From: Oscillospiraceae bacterium
Lineage (GTDB): Bacteria > Bacillota > Clostridia > Oscillospirales > Oscillospiraceae
Assembly (NCBI GenBank): GCA_021771635.1
Contig: JAETOQ010000006.1
Coordinates: forward strand, 1,908 to 65,907
Reading direction: 5' to 3'
Length of the DNA: 64,000 bases
In this document: positions 20,931 to 38,517 of the stretch, in pieces
How positions within the stretch are numbered: position 1 is the first letter of the stretch
Layout of the letters: each line of letters opens with the position of its first letter
The notes under the pieces: generated by a model
Seen by the model: the letters and a program-made list of their open reading frames with translations, nothing else
Told to the model about the DNA's origin: nothing
The model's database searches: none
Made by a program: the position numbers and the translations under genes

Positions 20931-20936
20931 ACGTGA

Positions 20937-20978
20937 AAATCCCGCCCTCTATTTTACATAGAGGGCGGGATTTTTGTA
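20937..20978 (+). terminator. intrinsic terminator of htpG
   Basis: Stem AAAATCCCGCCCTCTA/TAGAGGGCGGGATTTT followed by a T-run. Confidence 0.85.
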
Positions 20979-21058: not shown

Positions 21059-21502
21059 TCATTTTGCATTTTTTGCATTTCTATATGAAATCGAAATATG
21101 ACTTGGTGCAAACAATACTGATGCAATAATCAATAGCACTGACCTACTCATAATCCCACTAAATAAGAACAACATGGAAGGAATCATAGAAAGTGCTAAT
21201 GATCTGAAAACGCTGTTTTTCTTAAAACATATAATCCAAATTGCACAATAAAGCATTACCAATATGGCATCTACAATCAGATATATTGCAAATGCTTCGT
21301 CAGACCACCACCCGAACCAAGTTCCCGGAATATTGATTATCATGAATCCGAAACAACCCAATCTCCCTACTTGTTCTATGGCCTCAACATATTTATTGCT
21401 CCACTTATTATCAAATCCATCTTTGCACTTAATCGCAAATACAATATTGGGCATCATAATGACTACCATTAAAATCAGCCCAAAAACATTAAACCATTCC
21501 AT
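21059..21502 (-). CDS. small polytopic membrane protein (147 aa) in an AT-rich islet
   Basis: MEWFNVFGLILMVVIMMPNIV... with 4-5 predicted TM helices. Sampled lines are 28-33% GC against about 65% next door. The ORF-track extension to 21991 overlaps the epimerase gene and is rejected. Confidence 0.65.
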   Translation of the reverse strand: MEWFNVFGLILMVVIMMPNIVFAIKCKDGFDNKWSNKYVEAIEQVGRLGCFGFMIINIPGTWFGWWSDEAFAIYLIVDAILVMLYCAIWIICFKKNSVFRSLALSMIPSMLFLFSGIMSRSVLLIIASVLFAPSHISISYRNAKNAK

Positions 21503-21540
21503 ATTATCTACCACCACAAATCCCGATTTGCGGGGCCACC

Positions 21541-22428
21541 TTATTCCTCCACCAGGGACACTGTATAGGCCAAAGTCTTTTCCTCCCCCGGCGCCAGTGT
21601 CACGCACCAGGGCTTGTCCTCGAAGTTCCCGCTCTCGTTGTCGAAAGCGGCGCAGCCCTGCCACGGCTCGATGCAGATGTAGGGCGCCGTCTTGCCGGGC
21701 ATGGTCCAGAAGGCCACCATGGGAAACTCCGAAAAGTCCACCCGAACGCCCCGGCCCGTGTCTTTGTGGCGCAGGCTGACGGTTTTTGACCGCAGCCCCT
21801 GGTAGATCAGCGTATCCACCCGGTCGAACACCCCGTGGTCCAGCGCAATGGTGTCCGTGTGGTCCAGGGGGATGCCCGCCACGCCGCTTTGCAGGCAGCC
21901 GCCCGCGCCCGGCGGGATGGACACGGCGTCCTCCGCCTGGTCGAACACCAGCCGGTAGTCCTCGAACCGCTCCCCCGCTTCCAGCGGGCACCGGAACGCC
22001 GTATGGCCGCCGATGCAGAAGGGCATGGGCACCGTGCCGGTGTTGGCAACGGTGAACCGGGTGGAGAAGCCGTCCTCCAACAGCTGGTGCCGGACCTTCA
22101 GGGAGAACGGGAGGGGATACCGCGCCAGCGTCTCCGCGCTCTCCCGCAGTTCAAATTCCACAAAGTCCCCGCCCTGGGCGGAGACCGCAAATTCACTCCG
22201 CCGGGCGAAGCCGTGGCGGGCCATCTCAAAGGGCTTTCCGCCGATGTTCACCCTGCCGTCCCGCAGGCCGCCCACGATGGGGAACAGCACCGGGTTCCGC
22301 CCGGACCAGTAGGCCGGGTCGCCGCCCCAGATATACTCCGTGCCCCGCCGGTCCCGGAGGGACACCAGCTCGCCGCCCAAAGTCTCCGCCTGGGCGGTCA
22401 GCCCGTTTTTCCGAATCGTCAGCTCCAT
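21541..22428 (-). CDS. aldose 1-epimerase family protein
   Basis: NPVLFPIVGGLRDG and ARHGFAR motifs typical of the YihR/LacX-like mutarotase fold. Confidence 0.8.
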   Translation of the reverse strand: MELTIRKNGLTAQAETLGGELVSLRDRRGTEYIWGGDPAYWSGRNPVLFPIVGGLRDGRVNIGGKPFEMARHGFARRSEFAVSAQGGDFVEFELRESAETLARYPLPFSLKVRHQLLEDGFSTRFTVANTGTVPMPFCIGGHTAFRCPLEAGERFEDYRLVFDQAEDAVSIPPGAGGCLQSGVAGIPLDHTDTIALDHGVFDRVDTLIYQGLRSKTVSLRHKDTGRGVRVDFSEFPMVAFWTMPGKTAPYICIEPWQGCAAFDNESGNFEDKPWCVTLAPGEEKTLAYTVSLVEE

Positions 22429-22441
22429 GGTTCCTCCTCCT

Positions 22442-22735
22442 TTACAGATGGTGGTCCCGCAGGAGCCTTTTCGCCTGCTCCCACAGCTCGTCGCTGACGG
22501 TCTGGACCACCGCCACCTTTTGGACCAGCTCCGGCAGGGCTTTCACCAATTCCGCCTCCACCAGCGTCTCGTTGGTCAGGTCCGCCGAGGGGCACCCGGC
22601 GCACTGGCCCAGCAGCTTGACGTACAGCACGCCGTCCTCCAGGCGGTCGATCTGGATCTCGCCGCCGTGTGCCCGCAGGGCGGGCCGGACTTTTTCGTCC
22701 AAAACCGCTTCGATCTGTTTCAATTCCTCACGCAT
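22442..22735 (-). CDS. NifU C-terminal (Nfu-type) Fe-S cluster carrier domain protein
   Basis: 97 aa with VRPALRAHGGEIQ...GQCAGCPSA (CxxC). The start overlaps the AAA+ gene stop by 8 nt. Confidence 0.75.
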   Translation of the reverse strand: MREELKQIEAVLDEKVRPALRAHGGEIQIDRLEDGVLYVKLLGQCAGCPSADLTNETLVEAELVKALPELVQKVAVVQTVSDELWEQAKRLLRDHHL

Positions 22736-24257
22736 GGCTCTCTCCCTCTCTTTCCGCCGCTTTCGCCGCGGCGATCTCCTCCCGGATACGGTGCCGGGTG
22801 TCGTCAAACAACAGCTCTTTATTGTGCCGGAAATAGGCGTCGCAGCCGAAATTCTCCACAAACCAGCTGGTGTCATAGCCCGCTGTGACCTCCGTCACGA
22901 AGATCACCAGCTCCTGGCCCTGACCGAAGGTCTGCTCCAAAAAGCGGAAGGCGTTGTCGAACTGGGCGCCGGTCTCCGCTCCCAGGGACCGGCGTTTCTC
23001 CACTTCCCCGCCGAACCAGCCCCGCACGGCGTCCATGGCCGCCTCCGGAGCGGTGATCTCCTCCCGCTGAAGGCGCTGGCGGTAGTCCTCCAGGGTGTTG
23101 ATCTCCCGCTGGCCCAGGTCCCGGGTCTCCTTGTCCAGCCGGCCCGCCTCTCTGGCCTGCCTCAGCTTCTCCTGCCGCCGCCGCACCAGCTGGGCCAGCA
23201 CGGTCTGGGGCTCCGCCCCGCCAGCGGTCTTGAACTCCGTCAGGGCACCGTGGAGGGCGGTGGTCAGGGCGTCCTGCCGCCGTGTCTCCCGGGCGGCCTC
23301 CGCCAGCCGGGAGAGCACCAGGCCCATGACGGACAGCTTTTCGTCAAAGGGCGCCTCCCGCAGCTGCAATACGGTGATATTCTGCCACTGTCCGCGCAGG
23401 ATGTCGTCCACATGGTAGGTCCGCTGGTACTTGTAGTACAGCTCCAGATAATTGGCAAAGTCCTTGGCGACACGGGGCAGCTGGATGTACTGCCCCACCA
23501 CCTCCCGGTCCACCCGGAGACCCAGCGCCTCATAGGCCAGGATCAGCTCACTGAGGTCCTCCCAGCCCCGGGCGGTGGCGAACTGCAATCCGTCCACCGT
23601 GGTCTCGATGCGGTAAAAGTTGTCCTTCTTGATGTCCAGATAGGAGATCACCGCGCCGTGGATGCCCTTCCGGCGGGCATACTCCTTCCAGACGGCGAAG
23701 TCCTCCGCCACGTCGATGCGCTTCACCCGGTCCAGCGTCACCACGTCGAAGTCCCGGACCGACTTGTTATACTCCGGCGGGTTGCCCGCCGCCACGATGA
23801 GCCACCCCTCCGGCAAGTGCTGGTTGCCGAAGGTCTTGCACTGTAAAAATTGCAGCATCATGGGGGCCAGCGTCTCGCTGACGCAGTTGATCTCGTCCAG
23901 GAAGAGAATGCCCTCGGTCAAGCCCGTCCGCTCCATCAGGCGGTACACCGACGCCAGGATCTCGCTCATGGTGTACTCGGTGACGGAGAATTCCTCCCCG
24001 CCGTAGGTCCGCTTTTCAATAAAGGGCAGGCCGATGGCGCTCTGGCGGGTGTGGTGGGTGATGGTGTAGGCCACCAGGCCCACGCCGCTTTCCGCCGCCA
24101 CCTGCTCCATGATCTGTGTCTTGCCGATGCCCGGAGGGCCCATCAGCAGCACCGGCCGCTGTCGGACGGAGGGGATCAGGTAATTCCCCAGCCCGTCCTT
24201 TGCCAGATACGCCCGCAGGGTGTTGGCGATCTCCTGCTTTGCCTGTTTGATGTTCAT
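22728..24257 (-). CDS. MoxR-class (AAA_5-like) AAA+ ATPase with long helical C-terminal extension
   Basis: Walker A GPPGIGKT and Walker B ILFLDEINC, with AAGNPPEY downstream; 509 aa. Confidence 0.8.
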   Translation of the reverse strand: MNIKQAKQEIANTLRAYLAKDGLGNYLIPSVRQRPVLLMGPPGIGKTQIMEQVAAESGVGLVAYTITHHTRQSAIGLPFIEKRTYGGEEFSVTEYTMSEILASVYRLMERTGLTEGILFLDEINCVSETLAPMMLQFLQCKTFGNQHLPEGWLIVAAGNPPEYNKSVRDFDVVTLDRVKRIDVAEDFAVWKEYARRKGIHGAVISYLDIKKDNFYRIETTVDGLQFATARGWEDLSELILAYEALGLRVDREVVGQYIQLPRVAKDFANYLELYYKYQRTYHVDDILRGQWQNITVLQLREAPFDEKLSVMGLVLSRLAEAARETRRQDALTTALHGALTEFKTAGGAEPQTVLAQLVRRRQEKLRQAREAGRLDKETRDLGQREINTLEDYRQRLQREEITAPEAAMDAVRGWFGGEVEKRRSLGAETGAQFDNAFRFLEQTFGQGQELVIFVTEVTAGYDTSWFVENFGCDAYFRHNKELLFDDTRHRIREEIAAAKAAEREGESHA

Positions 24258-24272
24258 ATCGTGATCCCTCCA

Positions 24273-25643
24273 TTACAATTGGGGAAGTTCGTCTAAATCG
24301 ATGAGGTCCGGCAGCTCCTCCGCCGTCTCCCGCGCCGCCCTTTCCAGCCCCGGCAGGTCCAGCACCAGGCGGATGGCCCAGGGCGGCATTCTGACGGACA
24401 GAGGCGGCTCCTCCAGCAGGACAAACGCCGTGTCGTAGGGCGGCCGCTTTTGGGGATAGACGCCCATGCCGTCGGTGAAATAGAGCAGGCCCCGCAGACT
24501 GGTGAAGGCCCCCTCCTTTTGGAGCCGCGCCACGTGCTCGAACACCGGGCGGAAGTCCGTGGCGCTGCCGCCGGCCAGTTCAAAATGGTCCATATAGCGC
24601 TTCAGCTCCTCCAGATCGTGAACAGCGGTGTCGGACCGGATCTGGTCGTCACATTGGAGGATACGGATGTTGACCTTGCGGGTAAAGGTCTCCGTGCTGC
24701 GAAGGATGGCGTAGGTGCAGGCCAGGAACTGCCGCACCAGCTCGCCGGAGGTGGACATGGAGGTGTCCACGGCAATGACAAAGTCCTCGATCCGCTTCTC
24801 CTCCTTCGTCTCCGGCGGCTCCACCAGGGGCATGTTGCCGTAGAGCTGGAGACCGTAGGTATAGAACCCGTAGTCAAAGGCGTCCCCGTCCACCGCCATG
24901 ACCTCCCGGGGCACGGCGAACCGCCGCAGAAAAGCCCGGTAGTCCACATCGTCCCGGTTGGCCACCTGGATCTGCTCCAAGACAGCCTCGCCGCCGGTGG
25001 ACTGGCCCGCCAGCACCGTCTCCATGCCGGTCTGTGTCTTTTCCGAGAGGTCCTTCCATGCTTCGTCCTGCCGCTGGCTCTGTTCCTGGTCGTCCCGCTT
25101 TTCCGGGTCCCAGAGGCCGTGGTCGTCCACCAGGAAGGCCCGCTGGAGCTGTGCCCGCTCATAGTCCGACAGGTCCAGCCGCAGCAGGCGGCGGTAGATG
25201 CCCTCAGCGGTGAGCACCGGCATGTCCTGGCGGCACTCGCCGTAGAATTTCCGCTTTGCCGGGGCGGCCCCCCCATCCAGGCAGGGATAGTCCAGCTCGT
25301 CCAGAATGCTCTCCACCGCCGCGTCACAGGCCAGGTCCCACAGCTCCGGGGCCTTGCCCCGCTTCTTCGCCAGGTGCCGCAGCATACAGTGGAGGATCAC
25401 ATGGAGATAGGCCCGGTTTGTATAGATCCGGCTGCGGAGATAGCGGTCCGCCAGCCAGTTCCCGTCGTAATAGAGTGTCTCGCCGTCCGTGGCCAGGGAG
25501 ACCGTCACCCCGCCGCCGGGCTGGAACCGCAGGGCGCACAGGGCCACGTCCAGATAGGGTAGGTTCATATACAGCTCATTGCGGGCGGTGTACAGGATCT
25601 CCCCGCCGATGGCGGAAAGGTCCTTTGGCGGCGTCTTGTCCAT
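24273..25643 (-). CDS. VWA-domain protein with N-terminal metallopeptidase-like domain (DUF2201-like architecture)
   Basis: MIDAS motif VDTSMSTSG (DxSxS) in the C-terminal half. The N-terminal half has HVILH where HExxH is expected. ATG 25643 has an AAAGGGG RBS. Confidence 0.7.
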   Translation of the reverse strand: MDKTPPKDLSAIGGEILYTARNELYMNLPYLDVALCALRFQPGGGVTVSLATDGETLYYDGNWLADRYLRSRIYTNRAYLHVILHCMLRHLAKKRGKAPELWDLACDAAVESILDELDYPCLDGGAAPAKRKFYGECRQDMPVLTAEGIYRRLLRLDLSDYERAQLQRAFLVDDHGLWDPEKRDDQEQSQRQDEAWKDLSEKTQTGMETVLAGQSTGGEAVLEQIQVANRDDVDYRAFLRRFAVPREVMAVDGDAFDYGFYTYGLQLYGNMPLVEPPETKEEKRIEDFVIAVDTSMSTSGELVRQFLACTYAILRSTETFTRKVNIRILQCDDQIRSDTAVHDLEELKRYMDHFELAGGSATDFRPVFEHVARLQKEGAFTSLRGLLYFTDGMGVYPQKRPPYDTAFVLLEEPPLSVRMPPWAIRLVLDLPGLERAARETAEELPDLIDLDELPQL

Positions 25644-25730
25644 TGCGTGCACCCCTTTCAATTAGGAATTGTGGTATTCCGCCGCAGGCGGACTGATTTG
25701 AAGTTGTCTGGCAAATCCGGACTCCAAAAA

Positions 25731-25765
25731 TTCCTAATTCCTAACTCCTAATTCCTCATTCCATC
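25731..25765 (-). repeat. 5 x 7-bp tandem repeat (TTAGGAA-like on the coding strand) between the LRR and VWA genes
   Basis: The plus strand reads TTCCTAA TTCCTAA CTCCTAA TTCCTCA TTCCATC. The last unit overlaps the LRR stop codon. Confidence 0.85.
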
Positions 25766-26741
25766 AAAGCGCAAAGCTTTTATCCAGTCCGCCGGGAAAA
25801 TGCTTGTGCCGCTCTTCCAGCAGCAGCGCCAGGGCCTCCGCGGCCTCCTGCTCCCGGGCCAGGGCGCAGGCCTCCGACAGAGTATCCTGGTCCCAGCGGG
25901 CACGTGTAAGCAGAAACCGCAGGCCCGCCGTGTCCCGCTCCGCCAGCAGCCAGCGGGCCGCCTCCCGGACGTGGTCCTGCACATAGGCCAGGTAGTCCGC
26001 CTCCGCCTGGCCGGTCAGCTCCGCCGGATACCGCAGGCGCCACCAGGCCAGCCGCAGGGCGCAGCCTTTGTCATGCTCCATGCCCAGCATGGGCCGCCAC
26101 AGCTCGTCGTATGCCTTGATGCTCAATTTTTTCTGGTAAAAGCAGTGGTGATAGGAATAGCCCGCGCCATAGATGTTATAGTCAAAATGGTGGGCCGGAC
26201 AGTTTTCCTCATAGACCTCCACATATTCCGGGAAGATCAGCCGGGCGTCCTCTCCGTCCGTCCGGTACAGCGTCACGTCCAGCTCTCTGGGGAGTTCGTC
26301 CGCGAAATAGGCCAGCAGCTCTCCCTCCCGGCCGGTACAGGTCATGTGGAACGTGCTCAGGTCCCGGCAGTTCATCAGGGCGCCGCCGCCCCAATACCGC
26401 ACCGTGTCCCGCAGGCGGAGCGTTTTCAGCCCGGTGCAGTTGAAAAATCCGTAGTCTCCCACCTGAAGCAGGCGGTCCGGCAGGCGCAGGTCCTCCAGCT
26501 CGCTGTTGTCCCAGCGGTCCGATCCCCCCGCGGGGCCGCAGGTGACCAGCACCTCCTCCCCTTCCGGCATGGAGCGGCCGGGTGTCAGGGCGTGGTCGCC
26601 CAATGTTGTCACCGGCAGGCCGAACAGCTCCTCCGGCAGAGCGGCCCTGCGGTCACAGGTGGCCGCCCGCAGCAATGTGATGCCCTCCCGCTCCCGGCGG
26701 ATGGTCAGTCTCCAGTTGTTGACACCGCCGATCGTCTCCAA
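25764..26741 (-). CDS. leucine-rich repeat (BspA/LRR_5-like) protein with helical C-terminal domain, no signal peptide
   Basis: Repeats such as LRLPDRLLQVGDYGFFNCTGLKTLRLRDTVRYWGGGALMNCRDL. No N-terminal hydrophobic segment. Confidence 0.65.
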   Translation of the reverse strand: METIGGVNNWRLTIRREREGITLLRAATCDRRAALPEELFGLPVTTLGDHALTPGRSMPEGEEVLVTCGPAGGSDRWDNSELEDLRLPDRLLQVGDYGFFNCTGLKTLRLRDTVRYWGGGALMNCRDLSTFHMTCTGREGELLAYFADELPRELDVTLYRTDGEDARLIFPEYVEVYEENCPAHHFDYNIYGAGYSYHHCFYQKKLSIKAYDELWRPMLGMEHDKGCALRLAWWRLRYPAELTGQAEADYLAYVQDHVREAARWLLAERDTAGLRFLLTRARWDQDTLSEACALAREQEAAEALALLLEERHKHFPGGLDKSFAL

Positions 26742-26911
26742 TGGCCGCGCCTCCTTCGTTTCATCGTGTCCTGTATCCTTTGTTCACTGAGGGAAGTGTA
26801 TCACAAATCCCCGCCGTTTCCTAGGCCGCGGAAAAAATTTTCAAAAACCCCTTGACACTTCTGTTTATACTGTATATACTGTTCATGTACAGTACGAACG
26901 GAGGAACTTCC

Positions 26912-27289
26912 ATGGAACTCATTATCCGCAATACCGTGAATCAGCCGATCTACGATCAGATCTGTTCCCAGATCAAGGCACAGATCATCGCGGGACAGCT
27001 GGCGCCGGGAGAGGCTCTGCCCTCCATCCGGGCGCTGGCAAAGGACCTGAAGATCTCCGTCATCACCACCAAGCGGGCCTATGACGAGCTGGAGGCCGAG
27101 GGCTTCCTCTTCACCGTGGCGGGCAAGGGGTGCTTCGTGGCGGAGAAAAACCTGGACATCATCCGGGAGCAGCAGCTGAAGGACCTGGAAGCCCATCTGG
27201 CCTCCGCCGTGGAGCTGGCCGGGACCTGCGGCGTCTCGCCGCCGGAACTGCATGAAATGCTGCGCATCCTGTTGGAGGAGGAATCATGA
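26912..27289 (+). CDS. GntR-family (YtrA subfamily) transcriptional regulator
   Basis: IYDQICSQIKAQIIAGQLAPGEALPSIRALAKDLKISVITTKRAYDELE wHTH; short, 125 aa. Confidence 0.85.
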   Translation: MELIIRNTVNQPIYDQICSQIKAQIIAGQLAPGEALPSIRALAKDLKISVITTKRAYDELEAEGFLFTVAGKGCFVAEKNLDIIREQQLKDLEAHLASAVELAGTCGVSPPELHEMLRILLEEES

Positions 27290-28143
27290 TGAATGCCATC
27301 GAGTTATCCCATATCCGCAAATCCTTCGGCGGCTTCGCCATCCAGGACCTGTGCCTGACGGTGCCCAGCGGCACCATCTGCGGCCTGGTGGGCGAAAACG
27401 GCGCCGGTAAATCCACCACCATCCGCCTGCTGATGGGCGCCCTGCGGCCCGACGGCGGTACGGCCAAAGTGCTGGGCACGGACGTGTCCTCCCCGGAATT
27501 CCAGGATGTGAAGGAGGACGTGGGCGTGGTGCTGGACGAGGCCTATTTCCCAGAGGTCCTGAACGCCGTGCAGGTGGGGAATATCATGGCCAGCACCTAC
27601 CGCCGCTGGGACGACAGCCTGTACCAAAGCTATCTCCGCCGGTTCGACCTGCCGGAGAAAAAGCCCTTCCGGGACTATTCCCGGGGCATGCGGATGAAGC
27701 TGTCCATCGCCGTGGCCCTGAGCCACCAGCCAAGGCTCCTGGTGCTGGACGAGGCCACCGCCGGACTGGACCCCATCGTCCGGGACGAGGTGCTGGACAT
27801 CTTCAACGAATTCACCCGGGAGGAGGACCACTCCATCCTCATCTCCTCCCACATCCTCAGCGATCTGGAAAAACTGTGCGACTACATCGCCTTCCTCCAC
27901 CAGGGAGAGCTGTTGTTCTGCGATGAGAAAGACCGGCTCCTGGAGACCTACGGCATCCTCACCGACACCGCCGAGCAGGTGGACTGTCTGACGCCGGAGG
28001 CGGTGGTGGCCCGGGAGCCCAGCGGCTACGGCGGCGTCCGGGCGCTGGTGCGCCGGGACCTGGCCCCCAGCGGGTTCCAGCTGGAGCGGCCCACAGTGGA
28101 GGACATCATTCTCTTCATGGTGAAAGGAGCGAAGAACGCATGA
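27286..28143 (+). CDS. ABC transporter ATP-binding protein
   Basis: Walker A GENGAGKST, signature YSRGMRMKL and Walker B LLVLDEATAGLD. Confidence 0.9.
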   Translation: MMNAIELSHIRKSFGGFAIQDLCLTVPSGTICGLVGENGAGKSTTIRLLMGALRPDGGTAKVLGTDVSSPEFQDVKEDVGVVLDEAYFPEVLNAVQVGNIMASTYRRWDDSLYQSYLRRFDLPEKKPFRDYSRGMRMKLSIAVALSHQPRLLVLDEATAGLDPIVRDEVLDIFNEFTREEDHSILISSHILSDLEKLCDYIAFLHQGELLFCDEKDRLLETYGILTDTAEQVDCLTPEAVVAREPSGYGGVRALVRRDLAPSGFQLERPTVEDIILFMVKGAKNA

Positions 28144-28748
28144 AAGCCCTGCTGATGAAAGACTGCTTCGTTTTGTGGAAGCAGCTTCGGATCTTTATCT
28201 TTGTCATGCTGGTCATCTCCGTGTTCAACGGCGGGTTCGGCAATGTGTTCGTCGTCATCTGGGCGGCCATGCTGCCCTACACCGCCATGGCCTACGACGA
28301 GCGGAGCAAGTGGGACCAGCTGGCCGCCATGATGCCCTACTCCGTCCGGGACATCGTGCTGAGCAAATACGTGCTGGGCTGGCTGTGCACCGGCGCGGCG
28401 GCGCTGTTCACCCTGGTCTGCCAGCTGCTGCAGACGGTGCTGGGCTCTCCCTTTGCCGCCTTTGACCCCGCCGCCAATCTCATCGGCCTGTGCAGCAGTC
28501 TTTGCGTTCTGGCCATCACGTCGCCCATGATGTTCCGCTTCGGCGTGGAGCGGGGGCGGTTGACCATGTTCCTGATGATCTTTCTGGGGTGCGGCACCGC
28601 CGGGGCACTGGGGTCCGTCGTCGTGGACGGGGAGGGCCCTGCCCGCCTTCCGGCCCTTTTGACGCTGATCCTGCCCATCGCGGCGGTGGTTTTGACCGCC
28701 GTCTCCATCCCCCTGTCCATGGGGCTGTACCGGAAGCGGTCCTGCTGA
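28140..28748 (+). CDS. ABC-2 type membrane permease
   Basis: Six hydrophobic segments. Overlaps the ATPase stop by 4 nt. Confidence 0.7.
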   Translation: MKALLMKDCFVLWKQLRIFIFVMLVISVFNGGFGNVFVVIWAAMLPYTAMAYDERSKWDQLAAMMPYSVRDIVLSKYVLGWLCTGAAALFTLVCQLLQTVLGSPFAAFDPAANLIGLCSSLCVLAITSPMMFRFGVERGRLTMFLMIFLGCGTAGALGSVVVDGEGPARLPALLTLILPIAAVVLTAVSIPLSMGLYRKRSC

Positions 28749-38235: not shown

Positions 38236-38517
38236 CAATCAAATATAAAACCGATGAGCAAGAGGAGTAACCGGCTAGGGGACCTTTCAGAGAGCTGTGG
38301 ATGGTGGGATCACAGCAGAGAACTTTCCGGCGAATGGACTTGCGAGGGCAGCGCGAACGAGCAAACCGCTTCAGTAGCATATGACGGGGACCGCACCCGT
38401 TATCAGGGCGGCACGGATGAATGTCCGTGAAAGGAGCGGGCGCTATGCGTCAACTTGGGTGGTACCGCAGGATTTAAGTCTTGTCCCAACTTTGGGATAG
38501 GGCTTTTTATTTTTTTC
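38236..38517 (+). promoter_or_regulatory. T-box riboswitch leader, tryptophan specifier (UGG)
   Basis: GA/K-turn GAUGAG, AGUA, AG bay CAGAGAG, distal GGUGGGA. Specifier loop GAA-UGG-A-CUUGCGAG with UGG at 38335-38337. T-box TTGGGTGGTACCGCAGG at 38455-38471. Terminator at 38476-38517. Confidence 0.9.

Follow-up and report, generated by a model that had tools for sequence, protein, structure and literature searches.

A conserved LRR, VWA and AAA+ gene trio of gut Clostridia, probably a MoxR-type remodelling machine

The window analysed here, a stretch of 64,000 nucleotides (nt) from an Oscillospiraceae bacterium (GenBank assembly GCA_021771635.1, contig JAETOQ010000006.1, positions 1,908 to 65,907), carries three neighbouring genes on its minus strand that very probably constitute one conserved unit. 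They encode a leucine-rich repeat (LRR)-like protein of 325 amino acids (aa) (26741..25764), a von Willebrand factor A (VWA) protein of 456 aa (25643..24273), and an AAA+ ATPase of 509 aa (24257..22728). An earlier reading of the same DNA from its letters and translations (hereafter the original prediction) had proposed a four-gene module, with the gene of an Nfu-type protein (NifU C-terminal domain, 97 aa; 22735..22442, minus strand) as its last member; the conserved unit does not include this gene. From the gene content, conservation and co-divergence of the trio, the state of its motifs, its folds, and its homology to MoxR/VWA-like pairs, we interpret it, with a probability of about 0.6, as a chromosomal, ternary remodelling machine of the MoxR type with a client encoded elsewhere. 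The original prediction knew of no characterised system with the four-gene composition, and in the literature, within our incomplete coverage of it, we likewise found no description of a composition of LRR, VWA, and MoxR proteins.

Conservation of the trio

The ATPase belongs to a large family, counting more than 8000 protein clusters in a word-indexed search and 617 clusters at E <= 1e-30 in a library of 50 %-identity representatives. An alignment of 31 full-length ATPase relatives (35-52 % identity) served for a genome scan that took one genome per bacterial species, and at least 561 of the first 600 stretches encode an ATPase relative. The locus counts below rest on the best 80 species-level loci of these at least 561; counts out of 83 add three same-species contigs. 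The 80 loci comprise Dysosmobacter/Oscillibacter, other Oscillospiraceae, Agathobaculum, Gemmiger, Intestinimonas, and Caproiciproducens. Ruminococcaceae, metagenome-assembled genomes (MAGs) labelled Faecalibacterium, and Anaerotignaceae are also represented, and the many Lachnospiraceae include Blautia, Dorea, Anaerostipes, Coprococcus, Mediterraneibacter, Robinsoniella, and Anaerocolumna.

Only three families recur as neighbours in these 80 loci: the LRR_5 protein, the VWA protein with its DUF2201_N and DUF2201 domains, and the AAA_5-type ATPase. No other gene family recurs within about 8 kb. Four analyses agree on this, namely tblastn with five window proteins, tables of open reading frames (ORFs), all-against-all clustering of ORFs, and hidden Markov models of the families. 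The clustering counted 66 for the ATPase, 59 for the VWA protein, and 57 for the LRR protein, the next being a cluster of generic ABC ATPases; profile searches located the VWA protein in 78 of 83 loci and the LRR protein in 73 of 83. Order and strand are constant (LRR, VWA, AAA+), with the exception of locus L074, in which the LRR and VWA genes are opposite in strand to the ATPase gene. The LRR gene adjoins the VWA gene in 70 of the 80 species loci, which span two orders, and this bears out the earlier description of the LRR protein as a dedicated partner; seven of the ten loci without an LRR gene are cut off by the end of the contig. Of 74 VWA/ATPase junctions, 31 are overlaps of between 4 and 11 nt, often of 4 or 11 nt, and the gap between the LRR and VWA genes is below 30 nt in most other genomes.

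The three proteins also co-diverge. Their matrices of pairwise identity correlate with r = 0.92, 0.88, and 0.88, the LRR protein showing r = 0.88 with its partners, and the median pairwise identities amount to 54 % for the ATPase, 46 % for the VWA protein, and 28 % for the LRR protein. The identity of the ATPases largely tracks taxonomy, with a few oddities. ATPases from 'Faecalibacterium' MAGs (L064, L070, and L076) are 84-85 % identical to a copy from Acutalibacteraceae (L020) and 51 % identical to that of Gemmiger, and the ATPases of Anaerocolumna (L065) and Caproiciproducens (L026) are 63 % identical across orders; such cross-taxon similarities suggest occasional transfer or mis-binning.

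It is very improbable that the three genes share an operon out of convenience, with the LRR protein serving a separate function and the VWA and AAA+ proteins working as a pair without it. Such an arrangement would fit three loci (L034, L055, and L066) that have no LRR gene beside the VWA gene despite the presence of upstream sequence, and it would fit the wider family on a cyanobacterial plasmid and in phages, which consists of two-gene pairs devoid of an LRR gene. It is contradicted by the adjacency and co-orientation of the LRR gene in 70 loci of two orders, often at less than 30 nt, and by the co-divergence of its product with both partners. In addition, the LRR family is found in 618 protein clusters, and every member that was viewed in its genomic context lies in this kind of locus.

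Two kinds of loci deviate. In the related Lachnospiraceae loci L055 (6195-6644) and L066 (6128-6595), the LRR gene is absent and a gene for a protein of about 150 aa adjoins the VWA gene, which it overlaps by 4 nt in L055; the gene ahead of it in these loci is one that we take, by eye, to encode a D-tyrosyl-tRNA deacylase-like protein. The MAG loci L057 (6910-7938) and L069 (6086-7090) have no VWA gene between the LRR gene and the ATPase gene that follows it, which may reflect a deletion or an assembly artefact.

The Nfu gene downstream

The Nfu protein scores 73.2 bits with the Pfam family NifU (PF01106), and its GQCAGCPS sequence holds an intact CxxC motif (CAGC). Its gene is found 3' of the ATPase gene in only 4 of the 80 loci (L004, L005, L006, and L010), all in Dysosmobacter/Oscillibacter-like genomes and all at ATPase identities of at least 81 %, so that Nfu cannot be retained as a fourth member of the module. 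At ATPase identities of 77 % or less, the gene 3' of the ATPase varies from genome to genome. The synteny comparison with relatives that the original prediction had proposed as a check therefore speaks for the LRR gene (adjacent in 70 loci) and against the Nfu gene (present in 4). The gene of an aldose-1-epimerase-family protein, which follows Nfu in the window, is rarer still, being found in 2 of the 80 loci (L004 and L005). This distribution indicates that Nfu is a recent, lineage-specific operon neighbour, and that the Nfu and epimerase genes were apparently gained downstream of the trio in the Dysosmobacter/Oscillibacter-like lineage.

The original prediction had let the coupling of the ATPase and Nfu genes favour a function in cofactor insertion. 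Because Nfu is present in 4 of 80 loci and is not part of the system, its coupling is no guide to what the family does, and the argument is not valid for the family as a whole; in this lineage, the coupling could be functional or incidental. The insertion of metal centres is the task of MoxR/VWA pairs such as NorQ/D and CoxD/E. In a four-gene system, Nfu could deliver a cluster to a client held by the LRR, VWA, and MoxR proteins, the four together forming a system for Fe-S or metal-cofactor insertion. The 8-nt overlap between the ATPase and Nfu genes, kept in all four Nfu-bearing loci, and the intact CAGC motif are in line with such a system, as is the genetic link of RavA-ViaA to Fe-S assembly (PMC3893208). 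We nevertheless consider it quite unlikely: Nfu is missing from the other 76 loci, including Oscillospiraceae with ATPases of 62-77 % identity; the position 3' of the ATPase gene is occupied by varying genes; the operon of the window has also gained an unrelated gene, that of the epimerase, as well as a membrane ORF; and the flanks of 37 diverse loci show no recurrent family of Fe-S proteins or metalloenzymes. An Fe-S role would be at best a lineage-specific add-on.

The ATPase

The Pfam families named in the original prediction (LRR_5, DUF2201_N, DUF2201, AAA_5, and NifU) were all matched by the window proteins. The ATPase scores 29.8 bits with AAA_5 (cutoff 22) and 30.6 bits with the generic AAA family. 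Its Walker A (GPPGIGKT, residues 40-47) and Walker B (ILFLDEINC, residues 117-125) motifs are intact, just as had been quoted. In the 31 homologues of the alignment, residues K46, T47, D121, E122, N159, D176, and R230 do not vary, and R177 hardly does; a family signature situated between Walker A and Walker B, THHTRQS, is likewise invariant. By their position relative to the motifs, N159, R177, and R230 are read as the putative sensor 1, arginine finger, and sensor 2. The core and the lid take up approximately residues 1-300, after which comes a linker that is variable and poorly conserved, and then a C-terminal segment that is conserved.

Residues 35-293 align by hhalign (99.6 %, 26 % identity) with a 341-aa protein of Synechocystis annotated as 'MoxR family ATPase', in which the C-terminal extension of about 200 aa of the clostridial ATPase is absent; tblastn with the ATPase (E 4e-14) also supports homology to proteins annotated MoxR. 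The MoxR proteins comprise seven named subfamilies: MRP, APE0892, RavA, CGN, APE2220, PA2707, and YehL (PMC3893208). With an AAA_5 score above the cutoff and a match to a MoxR ATPase that neighbours a VWA-like protein, the earlier assignment of the VWA/AAA+ pair to the MoxR-VWA type is upheld. Sequence and profile searches of the PDB with the ATPase retrieved only the Walker A regions of Cdc48, p97, and midasin, and no solved homologue; the best single-sequence match was midasin (6or5, E 4.8e-8), confined to the P-loop region. Domain fusions in longer ATPase relatives were uninformative, one methyltransferase fusion being probably a read-through.

The VWA protein

The VWA protein scores 54.9 bits with DUF2201_N and 43 bits with DUF2201. 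Its metal-ion-dependent adhesion site (MIDAS) is intact, as predicted, with DTSMS at residues 293-297 complemented by T362 and D391, and the residues D293, S295, S297, T362, and D391 are invariant in 72 homologues. In the DUF2201_N domain, H81, H85, H90, and E111 are invariant in the same set, and C106 and D107 are found in 71 of the 72. The window protein displays here a zincin-like motif, H81-V-I-L-H85...H90. Position 82 is occupied by M, S, T, V, L, or I in at least 65 of the 72 homologues, Glu being absent from these six commonest residues, and hhalign (99.7 %, 24 % identity) sets it opposite the Glu of the HELLH motif in the homologue from Synechocystis; the corresponding motif in a protein of Pantoea phage G19, matched by eye from its translation, is HEAWH. 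The most plausible reading of the clostridial DUF2201_N domain is that of a pseudo-peptidase in which three invariant His residues persist and the catalytic Glu has been lost. It has the fold and family of a zincin but should not be an active one, because the Glu of HExxH is gone.

An AlphaFold2 (AF2) model of the VWA protein, with a mean predicted local distance difference test (pLDDT) of 76.9, was matched by Foldseek to VWA domains at a probability of 1.0. These include the VWA domain of NorD in the NorQ-NorD complex (9qh8) and the MIDAS domain of MDN1 (8ql1), and the full-length model matches phage 'metallopeptidase/VWA-like' proteins (E ~1e-16). Sequence and profile searches of the PDB with this protein gave no match. 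Nearly all of the 120 VWA relatives listed carry PF13203 and/or PF09967 only, with neither effector fusions nor a propeller.

The LRR protein

LRR_5 matches the window protein with 28.6 bits (cutoff 27.7) and all 51 of the 51 family members scanned, with a best E of 6.7e-13. The AF2 model, built from a shallow alignment of database matches, has a pLDDT of 86.5 and a predicted template modelling score (pTM) of 0.82, and presents a beta-solenoid N-terminal half joined to a C-terminal half of alpha-helical repeats. Its top Foldseek matches are TpLRR (6mlx, E 1.8e-5), followed by 4gt6, 4fs7, and 4oju; they are of the BspA type and cover the N-terminal half only, in keeping with an LRR part that is limited to the N-terminal 150-190 residues or so. 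For the helical-repeat half Foldseek gave no convincing match. No N-terminal hydrophobic segment could be seen by eye in the window protein or in aligned homologues, in agreement with the lack of a signal peptide claimed earlier; the LRR protein is thus presumably cytoplasmic, unlike the solved BspA-type examples, which are secreted or located at the surface.

The family keeps a segment of the form FPEYxExxEENxPA...GxGYxYRxCF, in which F170, P171, E175, E179, P182, A183, G192, G194, and Y197 are near-invariant. This most conserved stretch is at the same time the worst modelled (residues 171-200, with block pLDDT values of 61, 50, and 69). At the exact C-terminal end, 63 of 63 LRR sequences carry a tail of the type [KR]x[FY][DE]L with basic residues before it, the penultimate tail residue being Asp or Glu in most of them. 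As the conserved segment is not confidently folded on its own and the terminal peptide is conserved, both are candidate docking elements, and they behave as would be expected of such elements.

Genomic context and mobility

Our survey of the flanks covered 145 proteins around the trio from 37 diverse loci, in which 172 Pfam families were matched. The commonest are HAD hydrolases, ABC transporters, DegV, and enzymes of folate, arginine, and diaminopimelate metabolism, and among the 25 commonest families there is no integrase, transposase, restriction, or toxin family.

Carriage on plasmids was rejected, as no full-length copy was found in 72,556 plasmids. An origin from phages was rejected too, since full-length copies occur only in seven unannotated 'Bacteriophage sp.' contigs of faecal provenance. 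The 'Bacteriophage sp.' records with a full-length ATPase include MT835935.1 (L086), MT837836, MT837937, and MT836813, from human faecal viromes. The first of these (15.1 kb, marked UNVERIFIED) carries the full trio, with an ABC exporter, a radical-SAM protein, a NUDIX protein, an M18 aminopeptidase, DegV, a Mur-ligase-family protein, and an aminotransferase as neighbours; this record, at least, appears to be bacterial DNA deposited among phages. PADLOC matches to IetA, RtcR, and mad8 were rejected as evidence of defence because they are at the level of the P-loop only.

Proposed mechanism and comparison with known systems

NorQ/NorD, CbbQ/CbbO, and CoxD/CoxE are encoded beside the genes of their clients. 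These systems, like RavA/ViaA, share with the trio the pairing of an AAA_5/MoxR-type ATPase with a MIDAS-bearing VWA protein. The trio differs from NorQ/D-type chaperones by an additional zincin-like pseudo-enzyme domain and by an LRR protein as third subunit, and, in contrast to NorQ/D, CbbQ/O, and CoxD/E, it has no client gene nearby. Neither Pfam nor PDB sequence searches matched the trio proteins to the NorQ/D, CbbQ/O, CoxD/E, or RavA/ViaA families. In general, the established chaperone function of MoxR-VWA pairs is one of maturation or remodelling (PMC3893208; PMC7159879, section 8).

By analogy with such chaperones, the ATPase would form a ring and, by spending ATP, exert a pull on the VWA adaptor or change its shape. 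The adaptor would hold a protein by way of the metal site of its MIDAS, capturing an acidic side chain, and it may also hold a peptide in the zincin-like cleft; binding there should proceed without cutting, because the His residues are kept and the catalytic Glu is lost. The LRR/helical-repeat protein would be the third subunit that confers specificity, either presenting the client or serving as the handle that is acted on, and it probably docks via its acidic segment (FPEYxExxEEN) and/or its C-terminal [KR]x[FY][DE]L tail. We favour a housekeeping role in assembly or maintenance over an immune role because the architecture is constant, inheritance is mostly vertical, the flanks are metabolic, and no effector is present.

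The closest relatives of the trio are two-gene pairs of a MoxR family ATPase and a DUF2201_N/DUF2201 VWA-like protein, with a function that is likewise unassigned. One pair (WP_011153698/WP_011153697) is found among toxin-antitoxin (TA) genes on plasmid pSYSA of Synechocystis PCC 6803; Pantoea phage G19 has an annotated ATPase/VWA-like pair that matches more weakly, and in Pseudomonas phages only the ATPase was matched. Common to these pairs and the trio are a homologous ATPase core and lid, a two-domain VWA protein, the MIDAS, the His-x3-His-x4-His arrangement, and the adjacency of the genes. The pairs differ from the trio in their gene order (ATPase, then VWA) and in having no LRR gene; they keep HExxH (HELLH or HEAWH), whereas the clostridial family lost the Glu; their ATPases are of about 340 aa and lack the extension of about 200 aa; and their setting is a plasmid with TA genes or a phage, whereas the clostridial trio resides in chromosomal, metabolic neighbourhoods. 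Eukaryotic midasin (Rea1/MDN1) also combines AAA_5-type modules with a MIDAS domain, by which a partner is held at an acidic residue and removed with the use of ATP. It is, however, a giant single polypeptide with six AAA modules, and its likeness to the trio is one of generic motifs and folds.

Ternary MoxR-vWA conflict systems, of VMAP, iSTAND, FtsH, and beta-propeller types, were described by Kaur, Burroughs, Iyer and Aravind in 2020 (PMC7159879). They resemble the trio in combining MoxR, vWA, and a distinct third protein, in a weak bpMoxR similarity, and in catalytically dead peptidase domains, which are common among them (PMC7159879, section 12). Were the trio of this kind, the LRR protein would sense a protein of an invader and the VWA-MoxR pair would be an ATP-dependent threshold switch, with the effector located elsewhere or with sequestration as the outcome. 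Sub-threshold matches to the bpMoxR profile (PF20030) at 19-23 bits (19.1 in the window ATPase and 19.8-22.8 in relatives, against a cutoff of 27) may be counted in favour of this explanation, along with the rapid divergence of the LRR protein (28 % median identity, against 54 % for the ATPase) and the occurrence of homologous pairs in phages and, on a cyanobacterial plasmid, in the company of TA genes.

We hold a conflict or immune function to be rather unlikely all the same, as the trio departs from the conflict systems in their defining features, that is, the type of the third component, the variable effectors, and the bpMoxR threshold. Its third component is a BspA-type LRR/helical protein instead of VMAP, iSTAND, FtsH, or a propeller; the hypervariable effector arrays of the conflict systems are lacking, and the architecture of the VWA protein is constant. 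The hosts differ as well, since conflict systems are enriched in multicellular actinobacteria, cyanobacteria, and myxobacteria, whereas the trio belongs to unicellular gut Clostridia. Furthermore, the trio has housekeeping flanks with no recurrent mobile or defence family in 37 loci, it co-diverges mostly along taxonomy with no copy found on a plasmid, and PADLOC offers no family match beyond the P-loop level. A related proposal, that the trio is a cytoplasmic surveillance system of gut Clostridia in which the LRR protein recognises a foreign or damaged protein, the adaptor clamps it, and the MoxR ring gates a response, appears doubtful to us. If true, it would represent the logic of NLR (nucleotide-binding LRR) proteins built on a MoxR ATPase rather than on a STAND NTPase. 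The split-NLR analogy of the original prediction is a loose one: the NTPase is MoxR-like and not STAND, there is no effector, and the peptidase-like domain is without its catalytic Glu.

Several points weigh against a remodelling machine as well. The ATPase is just above the AAA_5 threshold and its PDB matches are at P-loop level only. The trio is incomplete in places: besides the three loci without an LRR gene despite upstream sequence, L057 and L069 have no VWA gene. No neighbour that could be a client is conserved beside the trio, unlike the case of NorQ/D, CbbQ/O, and CoxD/E. The LRR protein has roughly double the evolutionary rate of its partners, a pattern that a sensor under diversifying selection would also show, and distant relatives of the pair are situated among the TA genes of pSYSA and in lytic phages. 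Finally, the docking roles of the tail and of the acidic loop are only putative, and the LRR protein of the window ends in KSFAL, with Ala where most have Asp or Glu.

Layout of the locus in the window

The gene order and co-direction given in the original prediction, the 8-nt overlap of the ATPase and Nfu genes, and the 15-nt gap between the VWA and ATPase genes were all confirmed on the sequence. Its tight packing holds for the junctions VWA/AAA+ and AAA+/Nfu, and does not extend to the LRR and VWA genes, which are separated here by 120 nt. The LRR gene starts with TTG, preceded by GAAGGAGG, and the VWA gene starts with an ATG preceded by AAAGGGG, in agreement with the public gene call. The 15 nt from the VWA stop to the ATPase start contain GGAGGG, and ATGCGTGA is common to the ATPase stop and the Nfu start.

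The spacer between the LRR and VWA genes (25644..25763, minus strand) has AGGAATT-like direct repeats, and it also holds the distal complementary AATTCCTAATT. It contains no terminator, and its predicted fold is no better than those of shuffled sequences (z = +0.83). A regulatory RNA at this place was considered and rejected, there being neither a significant fold nor an Rfam match. The corresponding spacer in relative L005 is 131 nt long and similar-looking by eye.

The co-directional block extends beyond the four genes of the original prediction. The epimerase gene (22428..21541, minus strand; Pfam Aldose_epim, 90.7 bits) begins 13 nt past Nfu and is preceded by AGGAGGAGG. A 150-aa ORF (21511..21059, minus strand) follows 29 nt past the epimerase gene as the possible last gene of the transcription unit; it has hydrophobic segments that look membrane-spanning by eye, its G+C content is lower than that of its surroundings, and no Pfam family matches it. 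Only contigs of the same species carry this ORF, and the public annotation there calls a 51-aa ORF on the opposite strand instead. Past this ORF lies the sole terminator-like hairpin of the block (20936-20977), a bidirectional one in common with a convergent htpG gene.

The region upstream of the LRR gene (26852-28748, plus strand) holds divergently oriented genes of a GntR-family regulator, an ABC ATPase, and an ABC-2 permease, and a near-consensus sigma-70-like promoter is located at 26852-26880 on the plus strand. This arrangement of regulator, ABC ATPase, and permease is not kept beside the trio in other genera. Elsewhere in the window, a T-box leader (RF00230, 101 bits; 38245-38491, plus strand) is the only Rfam match.

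Significance

The trio is widespread in abundant Firmicutes of the human and animal gut, among them Dysosmobacter, Oscillibacter, Faecalibacterium-like MAGs, Blautia, Dorea, Anaerostipes, Coprococcus, and Mediterraneibacter. None of its three proteins bears a functional name in the source annotations that we viewed, and none has a solved relative beyond the P-loop. Work on the trio that set out from Fe-S biogenesis would chase a lineage-specific neighbour, Nfu. Testable handles are offered instead by the pseudo-zincin domain with its invariant His residues, by the intact MIDAS, and by the strictly C-terminal tail of the LRR protein. The general logic of a MoxR-VWA system is familiar; what is new in the clostridial trio is the loss of the Glu, the extension of the ATPase, and the LRR subunit with its tail.

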